This document shows, piece by piece, positions 24,961-36,317 of a stretch of DNA of 64,000 bases. The stretch is from Escherichia phage vB_EcoM_G4507. The DNA is taken from the sequence record NC_054919.1; one strand, 5' to 3'. Under the pieces are notes generated by a model. It saw only the letters and a program-made list of their open reading frames with translations. It made no database searches and was not told the origin of the DNA. Both the position numbers and the translations under genes were made by a program. Position 1 is the first letter of the stretch. Each line of letters starts with the position of its first letter.

Positions 24961-25014
24961 TCCTCATGTTATGTCAGTAAGACTACTATAACACAACACG
25001 AGGGACTTGTAAAC
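24961..25014 (-). promoter_or_regulatory. 54-bp early-promoter plus leader cassette, copy 1
   Basis: Minus strand GTTTACAAGTCCCTCGTGTTGTGTTATAGTAGTCTTACTGACATAACATGAGGA: GTTTAC (-35), TATAGT/TTATAG (-10), GAGGA SD. Matches 40215-40268 at 53 of 54 positions. Confidence 0.6.
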
Positions 25015-27071
25015 TACATCTTGAACTTTTTAGACATTCCGTTGATGTTAACCAAAGAAGCTAAGATTTGAGAAACTTCGTTTTCCTCTTCTTTTGATTC
25101 TTCTACAAGGAATTGATTAAATCCAGCCATTGGACGAACTTCACCAGTTTCCATTAGATGGTCGCCATCATATACTGATTCTTCTAATTGTTCAGAAGGA
25201 GGAACGATTGTACCTTCGATTAGATACTTGTTATAAGCAGTTTCTTTCATAAAGTAAGTACTTACTTTATTAATCTTCAGTAAAATTCCACGTGGTAGAA
25301 TAACTTCAGCTTCTGACGGAAATCCTGATAAATGACCCGGAACGATAACTTTGATTCGCTCAGCTCCTTTAATTACCATACCCACGCTAGTTTCAGCATC
25401 TTCATTAGCATATGTAGAATGACTACCCATATGCATCAAATCTTCTGCATCAACGGAACCTTCTCCTTCACCAGAAAATACTGCGCCGGAATCATCTAGA
25501 GCCATATAGTTTTTACCATGCTCACCGAAGATATTTGGTTTAAGCGATGTGGATACGAAGTTCTTGAAATAGAACATTTTATTTTCAATGTTATGACGCA
25601 AAGTTTTAAAGGTAACTTCTTGTCCACGGTAAAGTGTAGTTCCTGGAGGAAGAACTGAACCTTTAGCGAATGCAGAATCAAGCGTCTCAATATGTTTAAT
25701 AGCTCGTTCCATATATTCTTCACGGGTAGAATCTGGTTTACCCAAAAGGAACGAGTTCATTTCAACATATGAATCTGCACAATAATCTTCAATTACATCA
25801 GATTCAGCTTGAGTTAATCCTTTTGGAGTTACTTCAGTGCTTGCGTATTCATATGCCTGAGCAGCAGATTCATTAATCAATTTATAAATGCCATTCATGA
25901 CAAATTGAATAATAGCTGTCTTTTCATCTGGCGTAGCTTTAGAACCTTTAACCAAATCATTGATAATTTTCTTAATAACATCAAAGCTATTAGAAATATT
26001 AATATCAGCAAGATCGCTTAAAATTTTATCAGTCTTATAATCAAAGAATTCTTTATTCTTTAAATATTCTTGAGAACCTTGATATGTTATATCGCTCTGT
26101 AACTTGATAGATGGATCACGTAAACGTGCATGGGCTAATGCAATATGATTTCGGAAGCTTTCGAGTTCATAATCACTAGATTTAAAACGAGAAGCGCTTC
26201 TCATACCGCCTATAGCTCCTTTGCTGAAGTTTGAACCAATTTGAATAACGCCAGAGTTCATTGGTCCTTCTGCTTTATACACCGGAACTTTAGATTCAAA
26301 CTCTTGATATTTCTTAGCAGCGAAGCTATCACCCTGAAGTGAAGCATCAACAGTAGAATATTGAGCTTGTGCTGCTAATCGACGACTAATTTTAGTTTTC
26401 TGAATAACAGCTTGGTCCGTGCGCTTATCATTTTCTAAAGCAATAGAAGCAGCAACAGCAACAGCTTTAGGAACAGCATTACCTGTTTTAACATCTACAT
26501 AAACATCACCAACCTTTGATTCAACTTTTGTGAATAACTCAGTTGAAATAGGAGGTACACCTGGAATGTCTTCTAAATTGGCATTTTTACGATAAACCAT
26601 AATATATGCGTACTTTTTATCATAATCCCAGATTTCCTTTAAAAGAACATATCGACCTGCTCCTTTAGTACGTACTAAACGGTCAGCAATAACTTGCATT
26701 TGACGAGCAGCGCCATTTGTTTTACTCTTTAGTACGCGGAATAAGCATGCATCAATTTTATACTGTTTCATTGTTTGAAGAGCAGTATCAAAAACAGCGT
26801 TAATGACGCCAATTGGATTTCCACCCAAGTTTCTAAGTTTAACCAGTGATAATTTCTCGTTGACACCTATCATTACGATATGCATCATTTTATCGCCCGG
26901 CTTAACGTTTTTATTTGTATCACCTCCAGAGGTGTATGTACAAAATCTAAATCCAGGAAGCACGCTTTCTTCGCCGGCTTGAATAGCAAAAATTTGAGGT
27001 ATTTTATGCTTAGGATTTAAGTTAACAACCGGCGCCGAAGCGCCGTCAAATAATTCTGTAATAAGTTCCAT
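25014..27071 (-). CDS. Alt-like ADP-ribosyltransferase paralog
   Basis: 685 aa; N-terminus MELITELFDGASAPVVNLNPKHKIPQIF and ART motifs TLYRGQ, FYFKNFVSTSL, SEAEVILPRG align with the adjacent alt gene; ATG 3 nt after the alt stop. Confidence 0.85.
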   Translation of the reverse strand: MELITELFDGASAPVVNLNPKHKIPQIFAIQAGEESVLPGFRFCTYTSGGDTNKNVKPGDKMMHIVMIGVNEKLSLVKLRNLGGNPIGVINAVFDTALQTMKQYKIDACLFRVLKSKTNGAARQMQVIADRLVRTKGAGRYVLLKEIWDYDKKYAYIMVYRKNANLEDIPGVPPISTELFTKVESKVGDVYVDVKTGNAVPKAVAVAASIALENDKRTDQAVIQKTKISRRLAAQAQYSTVDASLQGDSFAAKKYQEFESKVPVYKAEGPMNSGVIQIGSNFSKGAIGGMRSASRFKSSDYELESFRNHIALAHARLRDPSIKLQSDITYQGSQEYLKNKEFFDYKTDKILSDLADINISNSFDVIKKIINDLVKGSKATPDEKTAIIQFVMNGIYKLINESAAQAYEYASTEVTPKGLTQAESDVIEDYCADSYVEMNSFLLGKPDSTREEYMERAIKHIETLDSAFAKGSVLPPGTTLYRGQEVTFKTLRHNIENKMFYFKNFVSTSLKPNIFGEHGKNYMALDDSGAVFSGEGEGSVDAEDLMHMGSHSTYANEDAETSVGMVIKGAERIKVIVPGHLSGFPSEAEVILPRGILLKINKVSTYFMKETAYNKYLIEGTIVPPSEQLEESVYDGDHLMETGEVRPMAGFNQFLVEESKEEENEVSQILASLVNINGMSKKFKM

Positions 27072-27074
27072 GAT

Positions 27075-29126
27075 TTATCCTTGAACGAACTTGTAAGGCA
27101 TGTTTGTAATATCTATGCAAGACGCAATAATTCCAAGAGATGATTCTACTTTCTGTTTAACATTTGATGAAACAAATGATGCAAAGTCAACTCTATCTTC
27201 TATATCACCTGTCATTGTAACTACTTCGCCGGTTTCCATTAAACGGTCACCGTCATAAATTACTGATTCGGTGAGTTCTTCGGTGGTCATAACTTCAGCT
27301 TGAATAAGCTTGTTGTTAGTTTTGACTGTTCCATCATTGTAAGATGCATCAGTTATTTTATTAACTTTGACCATTAATCCACGTGGCAAAATGACTTCCA
27401 TTTCATTTGAAGGCGCTAAACTTCCACCGGGTAAAACAACATTGACTTTATCAGCCCCAGTAATAACCCATCCAATTCCGACTAAATTATCGCTAGAATT
27501 AACAAGCCCTTCATCATTTTTATCGATAGAAATGTTTAGACGCTTTTCATCTGGTAAAACACCAACAGCTGAATCAGTCATCCAAGTACCAAAAATGTTT
27601 GGATATAATGATGTTGATACAAAATTTCTAAAATAAAAAACTCGATTTTTTACCATTGCTTCGTATATTGAAGGTAACATTCGTTGTGAACGATACAAAG
27701 TAATACCTTTTGGTAATCGTTCACCATTTTTAAAGGCTGAATCTAAATTATCAATAGCTTTTTCTATGTCAGATGCTGTCAAAATACTTGTACGCTCATC
27801 TGGATTATATAATCCCAAAAGAGCATTATTTATGTCTACATATCCTGAACCTACGTATTCACGAATTCCGCGTTTTTGTGCTGGTGTGTATTTAGATGAA
27901 TCTTTATTTTCGACTATAGGATGTAATGACCATCCAGCTGTAAGAGCATATCCACGTAATTCTCTTCGAATAATCTTTGTTTTTATTGCATTCCAAGAAT
28001 TTTGTACTAACTCATTTGCAGCATCTTGGTTTAAATGCGAATGTTTGTTAATATTTCTTTCAAACCAAGCACCTTTATATTTTTCTAAAGTATTATCGAC
28101 GATAGAAGCAATAGTTTCTAAAGTTTTTATTGAAGTAATAGATTCTTTTCGTAATTTTTCTAAAGCTTTATTTTTTATTTCTGCATTAATAATGGATTCT
28201 TTATCTTCAGGAATTATAGAAGCTTCTCTGAATGCCATCCCAGCTGTAACACTGCTAAGAGCATTCTCTAGTGCAAATCCTGAAGTAGAAATTACCGTTA
28301 ATTCATTAGAATCAGAAATTAAAGGCGCATCAGCGGGTTTATTTAATTCTGCTGCTGAAGCCTCAAATTTTTGAAACATCGGTGTTTCAAATCTAGAAGA
28401 TTCCAATGACTGACTTTGTGCAATTGCTCTACGGGAAATTTTAACTTTAACGATTACAGCTTGGTCAGAACGTTTATCATTTTCTTGTGCAATAGATGCT
28501 GCAATTGCCTCATTTTTGGTTACTTGAGCTCCGGTATCTTTATTGATATAAACATCACCGACCTTCGATTCAACTTTAGTAAAGAGCTCGGTACTAATTT
28601 CCGGAACTCCTGGAATGTCTTCTAGTGATACATTTTTGCGATGTATAAGAATATATGCATACTTTTTATCATAATCCCAGAGTTCCTTAAGAAGGACGTA
28701 TCTGCCACCTGAACGACTACGGATAAGTCTATCAGCAATAACTTGAATTTGTCGAGCTTGACCAGCGGTTTTAGACTTAAGAATACGAAGCATACAGGCA
28801 TCAATTTTATACTGACGCATTGTTTGCATCGCAACAGTAAAAACTGAATTGATATAATTAATTGGGCTTGGACCAAGACCTTTTAATTTAGCAATTGAAC
28901 CTTTAGCAGTTAATGTAAAAGGAACAATATGCATCATTTTATCGCCCATCTTTAAATCGCGATTAGTATCACCTCCAGATGTATAGGTACATAAACGAAA
29001 GCCTGGTTGTTCAATTGCATCATCAACATGAACTGAAAAAATTTGCGGTATTTTCTTCTTTGGATTTAAGTTTGTAATCGGAAGAGTAGTATCTTCGTCA
29101 AATAATTCTGTAATAAGTTCCATCAT
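27075..29126 (-). CDS. alt: Alt ADP-ribosyltransferase (capsid-packaged, injected)
   Basis: 683 aa; MMELITELFDEDTTLPITNLNPKKKIPQIF...; R-S-ExE motifs ITLYRSQ, FYFRNFVSTSL, NEMEVILPRG; late promoter upstream. Confidence 0.9.
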   Translation of the reverse strand: MMELITELFDEDTTLPITNLNPKKKIPQIFSVHVDDAIEQPGFRLCTYTSGGDTNRDLKMGDKMMHIVPFTLTAKGSIAKLKGLGPSPINYINSVFTVAMQTMRQYKIDACMLRILKSKTAGQARQIQVIADRLIRSRSGGRYVLLKELWDYDKKYAYILIHRKNVSLEDIPGVPEISTELFTKVESKVGDVYINKDTGAQVTKNEAIAASIAQENDKRSDQAVIVKVKISRRAIAQSQSLESSRFETPMFQKFEASAAELNKPADAPLISDSNELTVISTSGFALENALSSVTAGMAFREASIIPEDKESIINAEIKNKALEKLRKESITSIKTLETIASIVDNTLEKYKGAWFERNINKHSHLNQDAANELVQNSWNAIKTKIIRRELRGYALTAGWSLHPIVENKDSSKYTPAQKRGIREYVGSGYVDINNALLGLYNPDERTSILTASDIEKAIDNLDSAFKNGERLPKGITLYRSQRMLPSIYEAMVKNRVFYFRNFVSTSLYPNIFGTWMTDSAVGVLPDEKRLNISIDKNDEGLVNSSDNLVGIGWVITGADKVNVVLPGGSLAPSNEMEVILPRGLMVKVNKITDASYNDGTVKTNNKLIQAEVMTTEELTESVIYDGDRLMETGEVVTMTGDIEDRVDFASFVSSNVKQKVESSLGIIASCIDITNMPYKFVQG

Positions 29127-29146
29127 AGCCTCTCTAGTGTTTATTC

Positions 29147-29154
29147 TATTTATA
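29147..29154 (-). promoter_or_regulatory. late promoter TATAAATA for alt
   Basis: Minus-strand TATAAATA about 21 nt upstream of the alt ATG. Confidence 0.5.
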
Positions 29155-29159
29155 AAATT

Positions 29160-29177
29160 AAAGGCCCGAAGGCCTTT
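29160..29177 (-). terminator. hairpin AAAGGCC-UUCG-GGCCUUU upstream of alt
   Basis: 7-bp stem with UUCG loop at the stop of the 62-aa ORF; separates the early block from late alt transcription. Confidence 0.55.
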
Positions 29178-29364
29178 AATAATCTAGTGGTAAGAGAGTA
29201 CGGTATATTTCAAACTTTGGACCTTTTTCATAGGCATCAAATGTTTCTGTGAATTTATTATAAGCATATGCATCTACAAATTCGAGAATGACTTGTGATA
29301 CAGAAGTAGAAACATCTCCACCTTCTTTTTGAGCAATGACAATTGTTTCTAAGTAAGCTTTCAT
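29176..29364 (-). CDS. hypothetical 62-aa protein
   Basis: ORF coupled to the ligase stop (overlap 29361-29364); no recognisable domain. Confidence 0.5.
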   Translation of the reverse strand: MKAYLETIVIAQKEGGDVSTSVSQVILEFVDAYAYNKFTETFDAYEKGPKFEIYRTLLPLDY

Positions 29365-30824
29365 AAACCAGTTACCTCATGAAAATCACCAAATACATCC
29401 TCGAATGTATTAGCTTTAGTTTTATCTTCACGCAAACGAATCGCAATCGGAAGAAATAATTTAACGTAATCAGTGCGGCCATCAGATTTTAACCAACCGT
29501 TGCATTCGCACTCTAGAATTTTTCCAATATAATAATTTTGGTTTTCCATAATGCGAGTACGGTCAAGTTCATGCGATTTTACACCGGCTTTATCTTTTAA
29601 GCCTGAACCAGCATTTACTTTAATTTTTCCACACTCTGACTCAAGAATAAATCCACCTGCTTTAGTAGGGTCTTTACGGTGAGGATAAATTCCTACAATT
29701 TTTAAATCAACATCAATTACTTCTTTAAATTTATAGAGATTTTTTGAACGAGCATTTTCCCATAATCCATCGATATTTTTGAGAATAATACCTTCAAGAC
29801 CTTGGTCAATATACTTTTTATAAATTATCTTGGCTTCGTCTAGGTTATTTACTACCTGGTTTTCAATTAAAATTACTTTATCATAGCCTGATGTCATTTG
29901 TTCTAGTTTAGAAAAACGTACATCATATTTCAAACGAAATGCAGGAAGACCGTATATTTCTACCAACGGTACATAATCCCAGACCTGAAACTTCATGCAT
30001 TGTGCTTCTTTTTCAGAAATGGTTCCCTTTAAAGATTTATTGGCGATGCCATTAGATGCAGTACGTGATTCAGCTACTTCGGCGAATTCTTTAGCTTTAC
30101 TGTTTTCAGGATAAGCATCAAAAAGAAAATCTAGGCCTTCTGGCTCCTTTTTAACTTGCTCATGATATACCAATTCGCCATCAATTAACACGCCTTCTGG
30201 ATGAATCTGGCGGGCTTCAGCGGTCATTTTGATTAATTCTTCCTTAAGAAGATCTAATCCTAGATATTCATTACCAGCTCGTGATAAAAGACGAACGTCA
30301 TCTAATTCATCACCTCTGACTTCGGCAAAGCACCGAGCTCCATCAGCTTTTAACTGGGCAAAGGCTGGAAATTTGATATTCTTATTAATGCCTTTTTCAT
30401 CATAAGAACTTGCAAGCATTTGAGGTTGTTCAGGAATTAAACCTGGCCAAACTTTGTTCGCAATAGATACTGAAGCGCCACATTCAAGGTCTCGCATCAT
30501 CACTCGACGCAAAACTTCAACATCATCTTTTTTACCGTCAGTAATATAACCTACTAATTCCTCAATTGCCGCATTTCCGGTCAATTTTCGAGTAGCTAAT
30601 GTAAATTCAATGAAGTCAAGCATATCAGTAATAGTCAGCATTCCAAAACTCTGGGTAGCAATACCAGGTTTAGGCCATTTCTTGATATAATACTGTAACC
30701 CACGAGAATAAGTCAGACGATATACTCGTTTAAGCAATTCATTATCTTTATTCTTTTCAAGAATTGCTTGCTTCTGCTTAGTTGAACCAATAGATGCTAT
30801 TTCGTTCAGAATTTTAAGAATCAT
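29361..30824 (-). CDS. 30: ATP-dependent DNA ligase gp30
   Basis: 487-aa ORF with adenylation motif I FAQLKADGARC; N-terminus MILKILNEIASIGSTKQKQAILEKNKDNELLKRVYRLTY as in T4 ligase. Confidence 0.95.
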   Translation of the reverse strand: MILKILNEIASIGSTKQKQAILEKNKDNELLKRVYRLTYSRGLQYYIKKWPKPGIATQSFGMLTITDMLDFIEFTLATRKLTGNAAIEELVGYITDGKKDDVEVLRRVMMRDLECGASVSIANKVWPGLIPEQPQMLASSYDEKGINKNIKFPAFAQLKADGARCFAEVRGDELDDVRLLSRAGNEYLGLDLLKEELIKMTAEARQIHPEGVLIDGELVYHEQVKKEPEGLDFLFDAYPENSKAKEFAEVAESRTASNGIANKSLKGTISEKEAQCMKFQVWDYVPLVEIYGLPAFRLKYDVRFSKLEQMTSGYDKVILIENQVVNNLDEAKIIYKKYIDQGLEGIILKNIDGLWENARSKNLYKFKEVIDVDLKIVGIYPHRKDPTKAGGFILESECGKIKVNAGSGLKDKAGVKSHELDRTRIMENQNYYIGKILECECNGWLKSDGRTDYVKLFLPIAIRLREDKTKANTFEDVFGDFHEVTGL

Positions 30825-31090
30825 TGTTCATCCTTTAGAGTTTGGTTTACAGCTCTATTATAAATCAATTCATCATTAAGCTCAGTCAAAGACCTGTGGT
30901 ACGTTGTTCTAACTTTATTTCCTTGCATCCAGTGCTTGACGTAAATGAAACCTTGCTCTACACATTTTTTAAAAATTCGTTCGTCTTTTTGAGCTCGGAA
31001 TTCTGGATTGCATCTAAAAAATTGATTTACGTGACCGTAATCACGTGTAGTATTACCTTCATTTTCATAAATAGTGTGAACAACAAACAT
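30821..31090 (-). CDS. hypothetical protein (30.1-like)
   Basis: 89-aa ORF coupled to the ligase start; position only. Confidence 0.55.
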   Translation of the reverse strand: MFVVHTIYENEGNTTRDYGHVNQFFRCNPEFRAQKDERIFKKCVEQGFIYVKHWMQGNKVRTTYHRSLTELNDELIYNRAVNQTLKDEQ

Positions 31091-31929
31091 TAGAATGCTC
31101 CTTGGAAAATATTATTAGCACCAGTAGGTCTATTATACAAATACTCTATGCCACCGGGTTTAATATAGTTCCATGTCTGAAACGGATGCGTCTGATATGG
31201 ATGATATAGATGATTATAAGGATTAAATCCAGGAGTTCTCCAGGTAGTGTTCCAAGGAAAAGAATCGTTTTTAATCATCTTTTCAATTACATCTTTTATA
31301 GCTTTTTCACTATCAAAACTTTCTTTATTTTCCTTCGGTGAAAAAAGCTTATTTTCTACATCATTCCATGTATAAACTCGCTGAGCAGTTTTTGGAATAT
31401 TGTCACGCTCTCCTCGAGCCATCCAATAAACAGGAACATTTAATATTTCACTCGCATGATCGCAATGGTGAGCGAGATCGTCAATATAACAAATCACGTT
31501 ATATTTCTCTTTTGCCTTTTTAAACAACTCTTCTTTTGAAGAATCATGACCACACATCAGTACTTCTGAGAAGGCACCAGGAAAAAGAGCGTTCAAATTA
31601 AATTGACGATTCAGCAGAGCGTCAATAGAATCACCCAATGCTGTAACAGCTACAAAATTATAATCTTCTTTTAATTTGTTAATTACACACAGAGCATCTT
31701 TATATGGAGACAAGTAACGAATAAAATCTGAACGATTGTATTTTTCAATTAGCTTGACGCCAAGTTCTTCATCACAATTAAAAAGTTTACCTGGAGAAAT
31801 AAATTTCTCATCTTGGATCATTTTTAAAATATGTTCTAATGGAAGATTATATTTCTGAGCAAAATAAGGAAGACCTGATTGCCAGCTTAAACATACTCCA
31901 TCAATATCAGTTAAAATAGTAGGCTTCAT
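31090..31929 (-). CDS. HAD-superfamily phosphatase-like protein (30.2-like)
   Basis: 279 aa; N-terminal HAD motif I ILTDIDGVCL. Confidence 0.65.
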   Translation of the reverse strand: MKPTILTDIDGVCLSWQSGLPYFAQKYNLPLEHILKMIQDEKFISPGKLFNCDEELGVKLIEKYNRSDFIRYLSPYKDALCVINKLKEDYNFVAVTALGDSIDALLNRQFNLNALFPGAFSEVLMCGHDSSKEELFKKAKEKYNVICYIDDLAHHCDHASEILNVPVYWMARGERDNIPKTAQRVYTWNDVENKLFSPKENKESFDSEKAIKDVIEKMIKNDSFPWNTTWRTPGFNPYNHLYHPYQTHPFQTWNYIKPGGIEYLYNRPTGANNIFQGAF

Positions 31930-32390
31930 AGAGAGTCTCTTAATAGGTTTAACACATCAATAAATTCAGCTTCGGTTAGTATTGTATCATCTTTTGTTAG
32001 ACCACTAGCCATGCTGTGCTTCAAAACTTTTCCTTTCGAGGCTTGTAATGCATCACGAAAGCCCTTGTTTTGAATCGCTGCTTCAAAATATGCATTTGTG
32101 TATAATTCTTTCCACGCCGGGGAGTATCTTGAAAACGGAACTCCAATCCAGAAGAGGGTCCCACGGTCCTGAGCTCTAGCATAAGACCTTCCAGCTTGTT
32201 GGGCGGCAAGCCCGGATAACCCAAATATACGACGTTGTTGTTCAACATTTTTCACCTTACACCCTTGGAGGAATCCTTCAAGACCTCCAAATTGAATACC
32301 ATCCATAACGAAAGGCCATTGGGCGAAATTACTTAATGCGCATGATGGCCATCTAAAATTACTTCTAATCTCTAACTCAGACATTTTCAA
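31926..32390 (-). CDS. NADAR (YbiA/DUF1768)-like protein (30.3-like)
   Basis: 154 aa; segment SNFAQWPFVMDGIQFGGLEGFLQGCK matches the YbiA/NADAR signature SNFAxWP..DG as recalled. Confidence 0.7.
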   Translation of the reverse strand: MKMSELEIRSNFRWPSCALSNFAQWPFVMDGIQFGGLEGFLQGCKVKNVEQQRRIFGLSGLAAQQAGRSYARAQDRGTLFWIGVPFSRYSPAWKELYTNAYFEAAIQNKGFRDALQASKGKVLKHSMASGLTKDDTILTEAEFIDVLNLLRDSL

Positions 32391-32583
32391 TGCTTATAAT
32401 TTCAACATCAGCCCAATGACCATAGCAAGGAAGACGAAATTCAACTGGCCAGTTAGGGTCCTTTTCTAATATAATAGACTTAACTTGTGGTTCTTCGTGT
32501 TCATCAGTATACGGATTTTTATCTGTTACTTTATATGTGACCTTAATGTACTGAATTCCAAAAATCTTATTAATTATATTCAT
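32377..32583 (-). CDS. hypothetical 68-aa protein
   Basis: Short ORF in the operon-like 30.x array, overlapping its neighbours by a few nt. Confidence 0.5.
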   Translation of the reverse strand: MNIINKIFGIQYIKVTYKVTDKNPYTDEHEEPQVKSIILEKDPNWPVEFRLPCYGHWADVEIISIENV

Positions 32584-32777
32584 ACTAATTCCTTTAATCC
32601 GTAGATAGGAGATAATTCATCACCCATACGAAGGTCTTCATTTCCATCTACCCAGGAAACAATATAAGCCTCTTTTATTTGAATACCACTCCATTTAAAT
32701 GGAGGTAGAACCTTAGAAATTAATCCAGGTATACCAACTCCCTTTAATTCAACGGTTTGACCTAAAAAGAATTTCAT
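32580..32777 (-). CDS. hypothetical 65-aa protein
   Basis: Short ORF in the 30.x array; coupled start/stop. Confidence 0.5.
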   Translation of the reverse strand: MKFFLGQTVELKGVGIPGLISKVLPPFKWSGIQIKEAYIVSWVDGNEDLRMGDELSPIYGLKELV

Positions 32778-33064
32778 TAAAACCTCATCTGAAAACCATG
32801 CGATTTAACGTTACCACCGCCAATATCAGAAATATTAATTTCACGCGCAATTGAAGGGTCAATGTCAATTTCACGATTGAGTTTAGTGATAGCTAAAGTA
32901 TCGCGCCCATTTACAGTACGGAACTCTAAAGGACAAACCACATCAACGTAGTTTTTAATCGATTCGCTAGTAGGTTGCAAATGTGCAGGAAGGTCTTTAG
33001 GCGACTTTGAGAAAACTACTTCGCAGAAGTTTTTACGGGTATCAAAATAAGTAGTCATAAACAT
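32777..33064 (-). CDS. hypothetical 95-aa protein
   Basis: ORF preceded by GAGGA and a terminator-like hairpin. Confidence 0.55.
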   Translation of the reverse strand: MFMTTYFDTRKNFCEVVFSKSPKDLPAHLQPTSESIKNYVDVVCPLEFRTVNGRDTLAITKLNREIDIDPSIAREINISDIGGGNVKSHGFQMRF

Positions 33065-33080
33065 AACATTTTCCTCAGTA

Positions 33081-33096
33081 AGGGGCCAAAGCCCCT
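33081..33096 (-). terminator. hairpin AGGGGC-UUUG-GCCCCU
   Basis: 6-bp stem between ORF 33106-33483 and ORF 32777-33064, then U-run. Confidence 0.5.
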
Positions 33097-33105
33097 CATT
33101 TTATT

Positions 33106-33483
33106 TTAAATATCAAATTCGTTAAGAACTACATCAAAGATTGCTTCAAGATGCTCAGGTTTAGCTCTGTTACTCAGAATATGACGAATCCAAGTTTTAA
33201 CCAAAAGCTTGCGATTAGCACCATTCCAGCAAGGATGAGTCCCTAAATCACGTTGACGAAAATCATCATCCAGAGCGATTTTGAAGTTTGAACCTTCCAT
33301 TGTGATTGAAACCGTGATGCCATTTTCAAATCGCATATAAACGTAATTAGGAGTCATATACTGTTCAATTTCGCATACTGATCCATTTTGATGTTTCCAA
33401 AGGCAAATAGTATCAATAGAACCTGCAATACAATTAGAAACATATTTACGTTCAAAATTGGTGTAGTTCATTTTATTCTCCAA
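33106..33483 (-). CDS. hypothetical 125-aa protein
   Basis: ORF with GGAGAATAAAATG start context and GTTTAC-type promoter upstream. Confidence 0.6.
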   Translation of the reverse strand: MENKMNYTNFERKYVSNCIAGSIDTICLWKHQNGSVCEIEQYMTPNYVYMRFENGITVSITMEGSNFKIALDDDFRQRDLGTHPCWNGANRKLLVKTWIRHILSNRAKPEHLEAIFDVVLNEFDI

Positions 33484-33538
33484 GATGTTTAATTGCGGTA
33501 CAGGTATATAATATCATATCCTGTACCAAAGTAAACAA

Positions 33539-33871
33539 TTATTTTACTACTTTCCAATGCTGCATGTCAAGTTTACCAACTTTTTTCATCTTCTCAATTA
33601 AGCGTTCTGCACGTTGGCGAGCTGTAACATAATGCCATTCGCCTAATTCATTTTGTTCAATTTTTCCAACGATTACTGTATTCAATTCATAAATCCAACC
33701 AGTAAAGAAATTATGAACTTGAATTGTAAAGGTGAAATCTGTTCCCATACCTTCTGTTGTTTCTACTTCAATAATATCACCTTCAACTGCCATTAAGAAC
33801 CACATAGTTTCATCATATTTACCATTGAAGCATTTAGTTTTAACTGTAGCGTTCAGATTAATCGTTTTCAT
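33539..33871 (-). CDS. hypothetical 110-aa protein
   Basis: ORF with AAGGAGAATAAAATG start context and GTTTAC-N18-TAGTAT promoter upstream. Confidence 0.6.
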   Translation of the reverse strand: MKTINLNATVKTKCFNGKYDETMWFLMAVEGDIIEVETTEGMGTDFTFTIQVHNFFTGWIYELNTVIVGKIEQNELGEWHYVTARQRAERLIEKMKKVGKLDMQHWKVVK

Positions 33872-33958
33872 TTTATTCTCCTTTGTTTATGTAAGATAAT
33901 ACTATCACAAAGGAACTATACTGTAAACAACTTTATGCAATCTTTGGAAAATAAAAAA

Positions 33959-33976
33959 GGACTCCCGAAGGAGTCC
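33959..33976 (-). terminator. hairpin GGACUCC-UUCG-GGAGUCC
   Basis: 7-bp stem with UUCG loop 5 nt after the stop of the 58-aa ORF, then U-run. Confidence 0.55.
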
Positions 33977-33981
33977 TCAAC

Positions 33982-34158
33982 TTATGCTTTCTGCTTACCA
34001 AAACGAGAAGCATCATCTCGAAGAACCGCACGTGCTCGGCGCATGATCTTCTCAACAGTTTGATTGATACGAGAGTTCGACCCACGCTTGTAGCCAGCGC
34101 GTTTAGAATCACCAACTTTCTTTTCAACTGCTTTCTTTGCTTTAACTTGTTTTGCCAT
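33982..34158 (-). CDS. small basic protein (58 aa; possible 72-aa form from ATG 34200)
   Basis: Lys/Arg-rich MAKQVKAKKAVEKKVGDSKRAGYKRGSNSRINQTVEKIMRRARAVLRDDASRFGKQKA; start uncertain. Confidence 0.45.
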   Translation of the reverse strand: MAKQVKAKKAVEKKVGDSKRAGYKRGSNSRINQTVEKIMRRARAVLRDDASRFGKQKA

Positions 34159-34402
34159 TATAAATTCTCTTTTAAATGAAAATGCAGGACTTATTGGCAT
34201 TGCCTGCGAAAGCCCTCAAAGGGGTACTTAGGTTTTGAATATTTACCGACAGGATAACCATAAACCCGTCATCATTCACATTCAAGAGGTACACCATAAA
34301 ACTGCCGGGGTCTTAAAACTATAATGATTCGCAAATCATTAATCAGACAGTTCGATGGCTCCTCGATTTTAGCTCACACTAAGGCAGTGAATCTCCAATA
34401 AA

Positions 34403-34651
34403 TTACTTCAGTGTTACCACAAAGTGACGAACTGCTTTTCGTGCAGCAGAAGCCAGAGGCTTAGCATACTTAAGTTCATCTTTTTCCTGAAGCTCAGCGG
34501 CTAATGCAGTTTGAGCAGGATTTAGATGTTTGAAATAACGCAGGATTTCAAGAGCTTCGGCTTCAACATCAATAGATGCGCCATAGTTTTCGTGACCATT
34601 ATTCCATGCGTTTCGTTGCAGTTCAAGAGCGTGTTGTAATTGTTTAATCAT
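34403..34651 (-). CDS. rIII: lysis-inhibition accessory protein RIII
   Basis: 82-aa ORF between gene 31 and the 30.x array; length and position match T4 rIII as recalled; TATAAATA upstream at 34781-34788. Confidence 0.8.
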   Translation of the reverse strand: MIKQLQHALELQRNAWNNGHENYGASIDVEAEALEILRYFKHLNPAQTALAAELQEKDELKYAKPLASAARKAVRHFVVTLK

Positions 34652-34798
34652 TTAAAAATTCTCGTTAGAGATTAAAACTCGGTAGTCACGTTCTTCTGAA
34701 TTTCATCTTCTTTCGACAGATCTCTCAGTTGTAGACTACCACATAGAATTGTTCGGTTAACTTATTATTCCGACACCCAATTCATATTATTATTTATA

Positions 34799-35134
34799 TC
34801 ACTTATAAAGACATGGAATAGCTTTATAGTGACAAGTAACGAATTTTTGTTTAATTTCTTTTGGCTGCTTAAGACCCAGAGCTACAAAAGGATGCGGAAC
34901 GTTTCGAATTTGACCAACTGGAAGAGAAGTCAAATCACCAACTTCGCAGAAACCTTCAGGAACATCAGGACCAACAGAGTGAACTACACACAATTCAGGA
35001 ACTTCACCTTGAACACGTTTACCGATAATAAGCCCTGATTCTGTGACTTCTTCATCGCCAGCTTGTGCAGGTTCAGAAACTAAAATAACATATTCACCGA
35101 CAGCACGAATTGGTAGCTGTTGTACTTCAGACAT
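34799..35134 (-). CDS. 31: co-chaperonin gp31 (GroES analogue for gp23 folding)
   Basis: 111-aa [43 protein letters not shown]...; length matches T4 gp31 as recalled. Confidence 0.92.
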
Positions 35135-35164
35135 CGTTTTTCCTTTTTGTTAATAGATGAATTA

Positions 35165-35189
35165 ATAATAACAAATAATTCTTAAAGCA
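35165..35189 (-). promoter_or_regulatory. MotA-dependent middle promoter for gene 31
   Basis: Minus strand AATGCTTTA (MotA box), 12-13 nt, then TATTAT, upstream of the gene 31 ATG. Confidence 0.5.
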
Positions 35190-35190
35190 T

Positions 35191-35499
35191 TTATTTACCA
35201 ATAAATTGGAGCAAATGCTCAACTTTCATACCATTAACGGAAATCAATTTGTCAATAGAAAAACCTCGCCATGCGCCAAGTTCAACATCAAATACTGGAA
35301 TCATGTCAGTAGATTCTTTCCGAGTAGATTCAGTCAATTTACCAGTTTGCATGGTTGGCATAAAGTCTGCATCACGAGTACCTTTCATAGTACGAATAGT
35401 ACCATCAGACTTTTCAAAAACTACGTTTGAAACACCCATGGACAATTTAGTTTTCAAAATTTCGCGAATTGCTACTTTCTGCTCAGTTGTCAGTTTCAT
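35191..35499 (-). CDS. hypothetical protein (31.1-like)
   Basis: 102-aa ORF between cd and gene 31. Confidence 0.6.
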   Translation of the reverse strand: MKLTTEQKVAIREILKTKLSMGVSNVVFEKSDGTIRTMKGTRDADFMPTMQTGKLTESTRKESTDMIPVFDVELGAWRGFSIDKLISVNGMKVEHLLQFIGK

Positions 35500-35736
35500 T
35501 TATTTACCTATTACAGTTTTAATATGAGTTGTTCCACGTTCTTTAAGGGTGGAAAGTAATTTTTGGCATTTTTCTAAATCAGATTTCCAACTATATGGTC
35601 TATCAATACAAACCCAATTTGTCTTATAATACTGTTTCCATTTAGAGAAAAAATATTTCTTATACTCTACAGCAAACGAGATGTTCTCATTAGAATAAGA
35701 ACTAATTGCTGTGAGCTTTACCAAACGAAATTTCAT
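35500..35736 (-). CDS. hypothetical protein (31.2-like)
   Basis: 78-aa ORF coupled to the cd stop. Confidence 0.55.
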   Translation of the reverse strand: MKFRLVKLTAISSYSNENISFAVEYKKYFFSKWKQYYKTNWVCIDRPYSWKSDLEKCQKLLSTLKERGTTHIKTVIGK

Positions 35737-36317
35737 TATTCACCACAGAATTCGTTGATATTTTCCCAGTTTAACTTATTCAAGTTTTTCTTAGGAACAT
35801 TAAACACTTCAATACCTGCATTTCGCAGAATATCATCCCAGCCAGGTTTATTTTTATCGTATGTTTCGCAATAAACCAGCTTTTTAATACCAGATTGAGC
35901 TATTGCTTTTGCACAATCTGGACAGGGAGAAAGTGTTACATACATAGTAGCACCTTCAATAGAAGAACCATTTCGTGCAGCAAACAAAATTGCATTTAGT
36001 TCAGCATGAATTTCATTTTTAGATGACCATTCCGAGTGAGCACTACGATGTTCTTTTGCCAAGACAAAACGATCAGTTGAACCAAATGATACGCATTCGG
36101 GCTTATGGCCTTGAATGATAGTATGTTTAGGCTTATTCAACAACCATCCTTGCTCAGCAGCATAATCACAACAGTTCACACCCCCTGCGGGTGAACCATT
36201 ATACCCAGTAGAAATAATACGTCCATTCTTTTCAATTACTGCTCCTACCTTCCAGGAGCAACATTTTGATTCTTGTGATACTAAATATGCAATTTGAAGT
36301 ACTGTACTCGCTTTCAT
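35736..36317 (-). CDS. cd: dCMP deaminase
   Basis: 193-aa ORF with zinc-binding deaminase motifs HAELNAI and PCPDCAKAI. Confidence 0.93.
   Translation of the reverse strand: MKASTVLQIAYLVSQESKCCSWKVGAVIEKNGRIISTGYNGSPAGGVNCCDYAAEQGWLLNKPKHTIIQGHKPECVSFGSTDRFVLAKEHRSAHSEWSSKNEIHAELNAILFAARNGSSIEGATMYVTLSPCPDCAKAIAQSGIKKLVYCETYDKNKPGWDDILRNAGIEVFNVPKKNLNKLNWENINEFCGE

Follow-up and report, generated by a model that had tools for sequence, protein, structure and literature searches.

A 64,000-nucleotide stretch of DNA from Escherichia phage vB_EcoM_G4507 (sequence record NC_054919.1; "the window" hereafter means this whole stretch) carries on its minus strand an open reading frame (ORF) that an earlier note had described as a NADAR (YbiA-like) protein, a candidate for removing ADP-ribose from guanine bases and so countering DarT. 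We identify this frame as gene 30.3 of the T4 type, adfN. Over positions 31000-34000, the window shows 100% identity with Escherichia phage vB_EcoM_G10400, while many Tequatrovirus genomes match it there at ~98% identity, and we assign the source phage to this T4-type genus. The gene and the two codons that precede it are as follows.

31926..32384, minus strand: adfN (gene 30.3) coding sequence, predicted phage-type NADAR DNA ADP-ribosylglycohydrolase of 152 amino acids (aa) plus TGA, named from its T4 length match, gp30.3 identity, PF08010 match and NADAR fold
32385..32390, minus strand: two additional codons, TTG AAA, probably untranslated in AdfN; TTG is the first start codon in the ORF list, and the T4 annotation begins at ATG

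Reading frame and identity of adfN

The ORF runs without interruption from 32390 to 31926 and closes with a TGA at 31926-31928, encoding 154 aa if read from the TTG at 32390 and 152 aa if read from the ATG at 32384. The T4 record gives gene 30.3 as 459 nucleotides (152 aa), preceded by 30.4 and followed by 30.2, with 30.1 and DNA ligase farther downstream, and the published numbering of residues E36 and K43, when compared with the mutagenic primers of the paper that reports them, is compatible with ATG 32384 only. Because the length of the T4 gene and the published numbering fit the ATG only, translation of AdfN probably begins at 32384 and not at 32390. The TTG was dropped as a candidate start, as the T4 annotation, the primer-checked residue numbers and the overlap of the ATG with the stop codon of 30.4 all favor ATG 32384. 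The frame of 154 aa at 31926-32390 in the earlier note is thus a real, uninterrupted ORF, but its TTG start gives way to the ATG.

The product is identical to T4 gp30.3 at 150 of 152 residues (99%), differing by the substitutions L80I and I125M, and the gene order 30.4-30.3-30.2 upstream of DNA ligase matches that of T4 and RB69. The Pfam model PF08010 (Phage_30_3) is matched over its full length (profile positions 1-138 of 138) at 234.3 bits (E=4.5e-70), compared with a gathering cut-off of 36. Homologous DNA is present in 730 phage records, 725 of which span at least 80% of gene 30.3. When adfN was compared by the Nei-Gojobori method with five alleles of 80-98% nucleotide identity, the ratio of non-synonymous to synonymous substitution rates (dN/dS) came to 0.06-0.14, indicating strong purifying selection on the gene. 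The ORF is a real gene, far beyond what a chance reading frame would present.

Fold and conserved residues of AdfN

Homologs were compared in a family alignment of 54 sequences and in a structure-prediction alignment of 53, from which the T4 gp30.3 row was left out. The AlphaFold2 model of AdfN generated from the latter has a mean predicted local distance difference test (pLDDT) score of 91.5 and a predicted template modeling (pTM) score of 0.87, and it displays the YbiA fold, in which two small beta-sheets flank a helical core. A Foldseek search with this model returned E. coli YbiA (2B3W) as the top match, and all matches beyond the top three had E values of at least 2. The G. lovleyi NADAR 8BAT is larger than AdfN (219 aa versus 152 aa), and 130 residues of the two proteins could be aligned. 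On the predicted structure, the question of superfamily membership is settled: AdfN is a member of the NADAR superfamily.

Sequence searches alone behave differently. An hmmscan of AdfN against the Pfam NADAR model PF08719 gave no match at E<=1, and although 19 of the 54 homologs touch this model, the best of them reaches 32.3 bits (E=1.5e-7), under the gathering score of 35.1 bits. The window protein therefore lies outside PF08719 at its gathering threshold and is assigned instead to PF08010, the sister model, and to the NADAR superfamily. The NCBIfam scan of AdfN matched nothing, and a phmmer search of the PDB sequences with the single AdfN sequence gave only a spurious match at E=1, to an ATP pyrophosphatase. 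The family profile performed better against the same PDB sequences, with E. coli YbiA as its best match (E=0.01), the SNF motif aligned and E36 and K43 placed on YbiA E48 and K55; with homolog P0083 as a bridge, YbiA alone was reached (E=0.04). The earlier note had proposed a search against NADAR profiles and would have taken the lack of a significant match as a refutation. That lack is what we observed for PF08719, but the test would reject a true NADAR, because the gp30.3 lineage, for which Pfam keeps a separate model, scores below the NADAR threshold. Since the PF08719 match is absent, the superfamily placement of AdfN rests on fold, motifs and experiment. As the standard NADAR model misses AdfN, screens that use hidden Markov models (HMMs) only will undercount phage NADARs.

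The sequence motifs and residues that support the placement are listed below in 152-aa numbering.

32289..32333, minus strand: SNFAQWPFVMDGIQF (residues 18-32), the NADAR signature near the N-terminus, with ALSNF invariant in the family; the segment is profile-aligned to YbiA 29-43
32277..32279, minus strand: Glu36 (GAA codon), the catalytic, ribose-binding Glu of NADARs; invariant in the 54 homologs, equivalent to YbiA E48, and E36A impairs T4 AdfN
32256..32258, minus strand: Lys43 (AAG codon), catalytic or phosphate-binding; conserved in at least 90%, equivalent to YbiA K55, and K43A impairs T4 AdfN
32016..32018, minus strand: His123 (CAC codon), directly past the last beta-strand (120-122 in the model), the phage-NADAR substitute for Glu/Asp; invariant in the 54 homologs
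31929..31973, minus strand: C-terminal helix EAEFIDVLNLLRDSL, residues 138-152 (138-151 helical in the model); out of frame in RB69, and a truncated T4 variant is less active

Residues A16, L17, S18, N19, F20 and F25 are invariant in both alignments, and the spacing of 7 between E36 and K43 is that of E43/K50 in the P. nicotianae NADAR and of E88/K95 in the E. coli C7 NADAR. The residue in the last strand differs by NADAR group, with Glu in the YbiA family, Asp in DarT1-linked (DarG1) NADARs and His in phage NADARs (PMC11125620). Earlier bioinformatic work from Aravind's group had already set phage NADARs apart as a class of their own, marked by this His, and in published phylogenies their closest relatives are the NADARs of DarG1. 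The YbiA/NADAR-like signature named in the earlier note is accordingly present, as SNFAQWPFVMDGIQF at residues 18-32, and its reading of the product as a YbiA-like NADAR is borne out by the NADAR fold together with the conserved E36, K43 and H123.

Guanine ADP-ribose removal and competing explanations

The function of this gene is already known, from bioinformatics in 2012-2023, in vitro work in 2024 and genetics in 2025. Johannesman et al. (Nat Commun 2025;16:1598, PMC11825919) used phage crosses to map T-even resistance to DarTG1 to gene 30.3, which they renamed adfN. Deletion of adfN in T4 or T2 abolished plaques on DarTG1 cells, ectopic expression of AdfN rescued the DarTG1-sensitive phage RB69, and the E36A, K43A and C-terminally truncated forms of T4 AdfN were impaired (PMC11825919). 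In the same study, DarT1-modified DNA lost its ADP-ribose when treated with purified T4 AdfN, no AdfN-DarT1 interaction was found by two-hybrid, and the thymidine-modifying DarTG2 was not countered; T4 AdfN is thus reported as a DNA guanine ADP-ribosylglycohydrolase that is necessary and sufficient against DarTG1 (PMC11825919). Cihlova et al. (Toxins 2024, PMC11125620) found that the purified T4 protein cleaves guanosine-ADP-ribose on DNA but not thymidine-ADP-ribose, and a summary table in the literature assigns activity on cytidine-ADP-ribose to the NADAR and YbiA families only. Independently, in a T4 transposon screen, adfN insertions were lost on DarTG1 hosts only, and the gene was dispensable on K-12, which is DarTG-free (bioRxiv 10.1101/2025.11.20.689424). 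The removal of guanine ADP-ribose against DarT that the earlier note had proposed has therefore been demonstrated experimentally, for the 99%-identical T4 gp30.3 (PMC11825919, PMC11125620).

We are highly confident that the gene in the window is adfN and encodes a stand-alone NADAR-fold enzyme that erases DarT1-made guanine ADP-ribose from phage DNA. Identity, fold, residue conservation, intact frame, purifying selection and context were established here in the window, while activity and phenotype are those of the T4 protein, and we found no evidence at the sequence level against this explanation. The conservative substitutions L80I and I125M are expected to leave function unchanged. Upon infection of a DarTG1 host, DarT1 would ADP-ribosylate guanine (at N2) in phage DNA and block replication; AdfN would then cut the N-glycosidic bond, freeing ADP-ribose and restoring guanine so that the phage can replicate. 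It would do so by catalysis on DNA, as does the host antitoxin DarG1, and not by binding the toxin. The distal ribose and the phosphates of ADP-ribose would be held by Glu36 and Lys43, His123 would occupy the position of the catalytic Glu/Asp of other NADARs, and full activity would require the C-terminal helix. The enzyme would be produced from the promoter-proximal string of 30.x genes upstream of DNA ligase. An orphan antitoxin-type bacterial enzyme in a lytic phage would in this manner erase a DNA-damaging immune mark.

The RB69 allele provides a natural comparison. Its sensitivity to DarTG1 stems from a frameshift that truncates AdfN, as the RB69 record confirms: the 30.3 product is 137 aa long and ends at T137, with the helix EAEFIDVLNLLRDSL encoded just downstream, out of frame. 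The window allele keeps this helix in frame, and its residues 138-152 match those of T4 at every position. Since its C-terminal helix is intact, unlike that of RB69, the source phage is predicted to resist DarTG1.

Together with the missing PF08719 match, two published results set limits to this assignment. The E36A and K43A mutants keep partial rescue (PMC11825919), which may reflect residual activity of the mutants or may mean that catalysis is not the sole contribution of AdfN. In addition, T4 AdfN gives uninfected cells no rescue from DarT1 toxicity (PMC11125620); its protection against DarT1 is full during T-even infection only and is partial for other phages. An assay of whether expression protects against the toxin, as put forward in the earlier note, would consequently read negative if performed in uninfected cells, because T4 AdfN fails to rescue DarT1 toxicity there. 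For the T-even-restricted activity, the authors consider two causes: the enzyme may prefer DNA that contains hydroxymethylcytosine, or another factor of the phage may be involved.

Comparison with characterized systems sets AdfN close to its T4 namesake, with which it shares its length (gp30.3, PF08010), the neighbors 30.4 and 30.2, the residues E36, K43 and H123 and the C-terminal helix; apart from L80I and I125M, the difference is that the source phage has a second full-length Alt paralog, which T4 does not. From DarG1 (G. lovleyi 8BAT and the E. coli C7 NADAR), AdfN differs in being an orphan with no adjacent darT, in consisting of the 152-aa core without the N-terminal extension of DarG1, in having His rather than Asp in the last strand and in not rescuing DarT1 toxicity in uninfected cells. 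We found no darT1 beside adfN, whose neighbors are 30.4 and 30.2 and whose surrounding ORFs match T4 alt through cd. A Pfam scan of the other ORFs of 29000-36000 (30.1 to 30.8) gave no match to an ADP-ribosyltransferase family, and those found nearby are of the Alt type (PF03496) only. Three other proteins allow T-even and related phages to escape DarTG defence: AdfA (gp61.2), AdfB and AdfM (Tk.4). AdfA and AdfB are small and non-enzymatic and appear to bind DarT, whereas AdfN is an enzyme specific for the guanine adduct (DarTG1), and for the macrodomain AdfM a role against the thymidine-modifying DarTG2 has been proposed.

Several other substrates can be envisaged for a NADAR in this setting. 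The main substrate of AdfN could be a soluble ADP-ribose derivative, that is, a signal nucleotide or toxin of host NAD-dependent immunity, with the anti-DarT1 effect being secondary, and such a role is consistent with the NUDIX and Thg1-like genes that lie close to distant family members in large phage-like contigs. We nevertheless judge it improbable, as there is direct evidence that the T4 protein acts on DNA and has a DarTG1 phenotype, adfN is dispensable on K-12 and essential only with DarTG1, and no soluble substrate has been demonstrated. A housekeeping role as a YbiA-like N-glycosidase acting on intermediates of the riboflavin pathway is vanishingly unlikely. Both by sequence and by Foldseek, E. 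coli YbiA is the best match to AdfN, it is likewise a bare core domain of similar size, both proteins remove guanine-linked ADP-ribose in vitro (PMC11125620), and a role of YbiA in riboflavin metabolism has been described. However, the last-strand Glu that defines the YbiA family is an invariant His in AdfN, published phylogenies put phage NADARs nearest to DarG1 NADARs, and the anti-DarTG1 phenotype was shown for the T4 protein; YbiA itself belongs to a LexA-controlled operon and is not a DarT1 antitoxin (PMC11125620).

A further explanation arises from the ADP-ribosyltransferase (ART) genes near adfN, which the earlier note had mentioned as Alt genes and of which there are two.

25014-27071, minus strand: Alt-type ART paralog, full length (PF03496), 42% identical to the second Alt gene
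27075-29126, minus strand: T4 Alt ortholog (PF03496), 98% identical to T4 Alt, which is annotated in the T4 record as RNA polymerase ADP-ribosylase

AdfN might erase the ADP-ribosylation that the phage's own Alt, Alt paralog, ModA or ModB places on proteins or nucleic acids. In favor of this are the distance of 2.8 kb between adfN and the two Alt-type genes, the persistence of the alt-ligase-30.x synteny in a 58%-identical relative and the early co-expression of T4-like NADARs with ARTs, a context that was already in print (Iyer et al. 2022). Yet every NADAR tested, that of T4 among them, acts on ADP-ribose linked to a base (guanine and, in some cases, cytosine), and protein-linked ADP-ribose is not reported as a NADAR substrate in the literature that we consulted on these enzymes. 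Alt, on the other hand, modifies arginine in proteins. Moreover, on K-12, a host in which Alt is active, deletion of adfN is without phenotype, and distant AdfN homologs (38-39% identity) had no DarT, Alt-type ART or 30.2 homolog beside them at the loci examined. We regard this self-directed role as highly improbable. The retained gene order accords with synteny within the lineage rather than with selection to keep the genes linked. The idea in the earlier note that ADP-ribose writer and eraser functions lie within about 3 kb of each other hence holds as geometry, while we have no evidence for a functional link: the proximity of AdfN to Alt is positional only, and the opponent of AdfN is host DarT1 acting on DNA guanine.

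Neighboring genes, alleles and annotation

The two immediate neighbors of adfN are encoded on the same strand.

32377..32583, minus strand: gene 30.4, 68 aa, upstream neighbor whose stop overlaps the adfN start in ATGTCTGA; assigned from the T4 annotation and phrog_2042
31090..31929, minus strand: gene 30.2, 279 aa, downstream neighbor, its ATG and the adfN TGA overlapping in ATGA; residues ~1-200 form a HAD-superfamily hydrolase core, assigned from motifs, Foldseek and a profile match

On account of the start/stop overlaps in ATGTCTGA and ATGA, we read 30.4, adfN and 30.2 as packed in a translationally coupled string. The ORFs at 32377-33871, which the earlier note had listed as a run of small unknown frames, are T4 genes 30.4 to 30.8. 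Just upstream of 30.8, a consensus scan located a strong terminator-like hairpin (33957-33978, minus strand; 9-bp stem with 5 GC pairs, followed by a T-run) and after it a promoter-like site (33899-33927, minus strand; TTTACA-17-TAGTAT with an upstream TG). Hairpin and promoter-like site could plausibly form the transcription-unit boundary of the string that extends from 30.8 to ligase.

For gp30.2, the HAD-like phosphatase assignment of the earlier note is reasonable at the level of the fold, as the protein has the four HAD motifs and a HAD-fold model. Motifs I-IV include the invariant residues D8, D10, K132, D150 and D151 and the nearly invariant T96, and the core of the model has pLDDT values >90. 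Foldseek returned 115 PDB matches at E<=1e-3, and the best 50 of these 115 are almost all HAD-superfamily enzymes; matches to HAD hydrolases, 5'(3')-deoxyribonucleotidases among them, reach E ~2e-8, and a profile match to 2jao was also obtained. No Pfam or NCBIfam model and no annotated PHROG function matched gp30.2. Residues ~200-279 form a tail of ~80 residues that is rich in aromatic residues, Pro and Asn and has pLDDT values <55; it is variable in length or absent among homologs, many of which are 196-220 aa long. There is a slim chance that the T-even-specific factor for AdfN is encoded in the same coupled gene string, with gp30.2 as the obvious candidate, in which case it could, for instance, clear away the ADP-ribose or ribose phosphates that are set free, or bring AdfN to DNA during its replication. 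The preprint on the T4 transposon screen (bioRxiv 10.1101/2025.11.20.689424) does not contain the string "30.2" in its main text. The idea that AdfN and gp30.2 form a conserved functional pair was considered and is unsupported, as the distant AdfN homologs have unrelated neighbors. Distant members of the family, among the matches listed, lie on large contigs of 82-308 kb, two of them at positions 5001-5468 of contigs L002 and L005, with NUDIX, Thg1-like and AAA genes as neighbors in L002 and a GGDEF-domain gene in L005.

Farther downstream, the T4 counterpart of the paralog gene at 25014-27071 consists of the fragments alt.-1 and alt.-2 only, and comparison of the two genomes indicates that the source phage keeps an intact ancestral Alt duplicate that has been reduced to fragments in T4.

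Within adfN itself, T4 annotation records an additional frame.

32021-32248, minus strand: 30.3', a 75-aa ORF inside adfN, annotated in T4 as "internal translation in a different reading frame"

Alleles of Tequatrovirus, Dhakavirus and Gaprivervirus keep this frame open, but it carries a stop codon in the three Mosigvirus alleles compared (RB69, G2469 and AV109). Its own-frame dN/dS is 0.5-1.2, and the synonymous rate of adfN shows no clear fall. On these three grounds, we rejected 30.3' as a conserved gene.

In many T4-like genomes, the gp30.3 product is shortened or fused, with lengths of 83-154 aa (proteins P0007, P0014-P0017, P0048 and P0095; locus L011, 8268-8681), and some of the fused products join PF08010 to 30.7, 30.8 or other domains. 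Such alleles suggest recurrent deletions and frameshifts in the 30.3-30.8 string, and they may mark phages that are naturally sensitive to DarTG1, as is RB69. The state of the adfN allele, intact versus truncated or fused, could predict DarTG1 sensitivity when T4-like phages are chosen for therapy; the allele of the source phage is intact. Public annotation of adfN lags behind the published function, as gene 30.3 is labeled "hypothetical protein" or similar in every one of the matches listed from the 730 records. In phage IME281 (locus L014, 291-749), an intact adfN ORF of 152 aa has no annotated coding sequence, and in phage AV109 (locus L013, 301-759) the product is annotated as 126 aa from an internal start, while the full frame is open.

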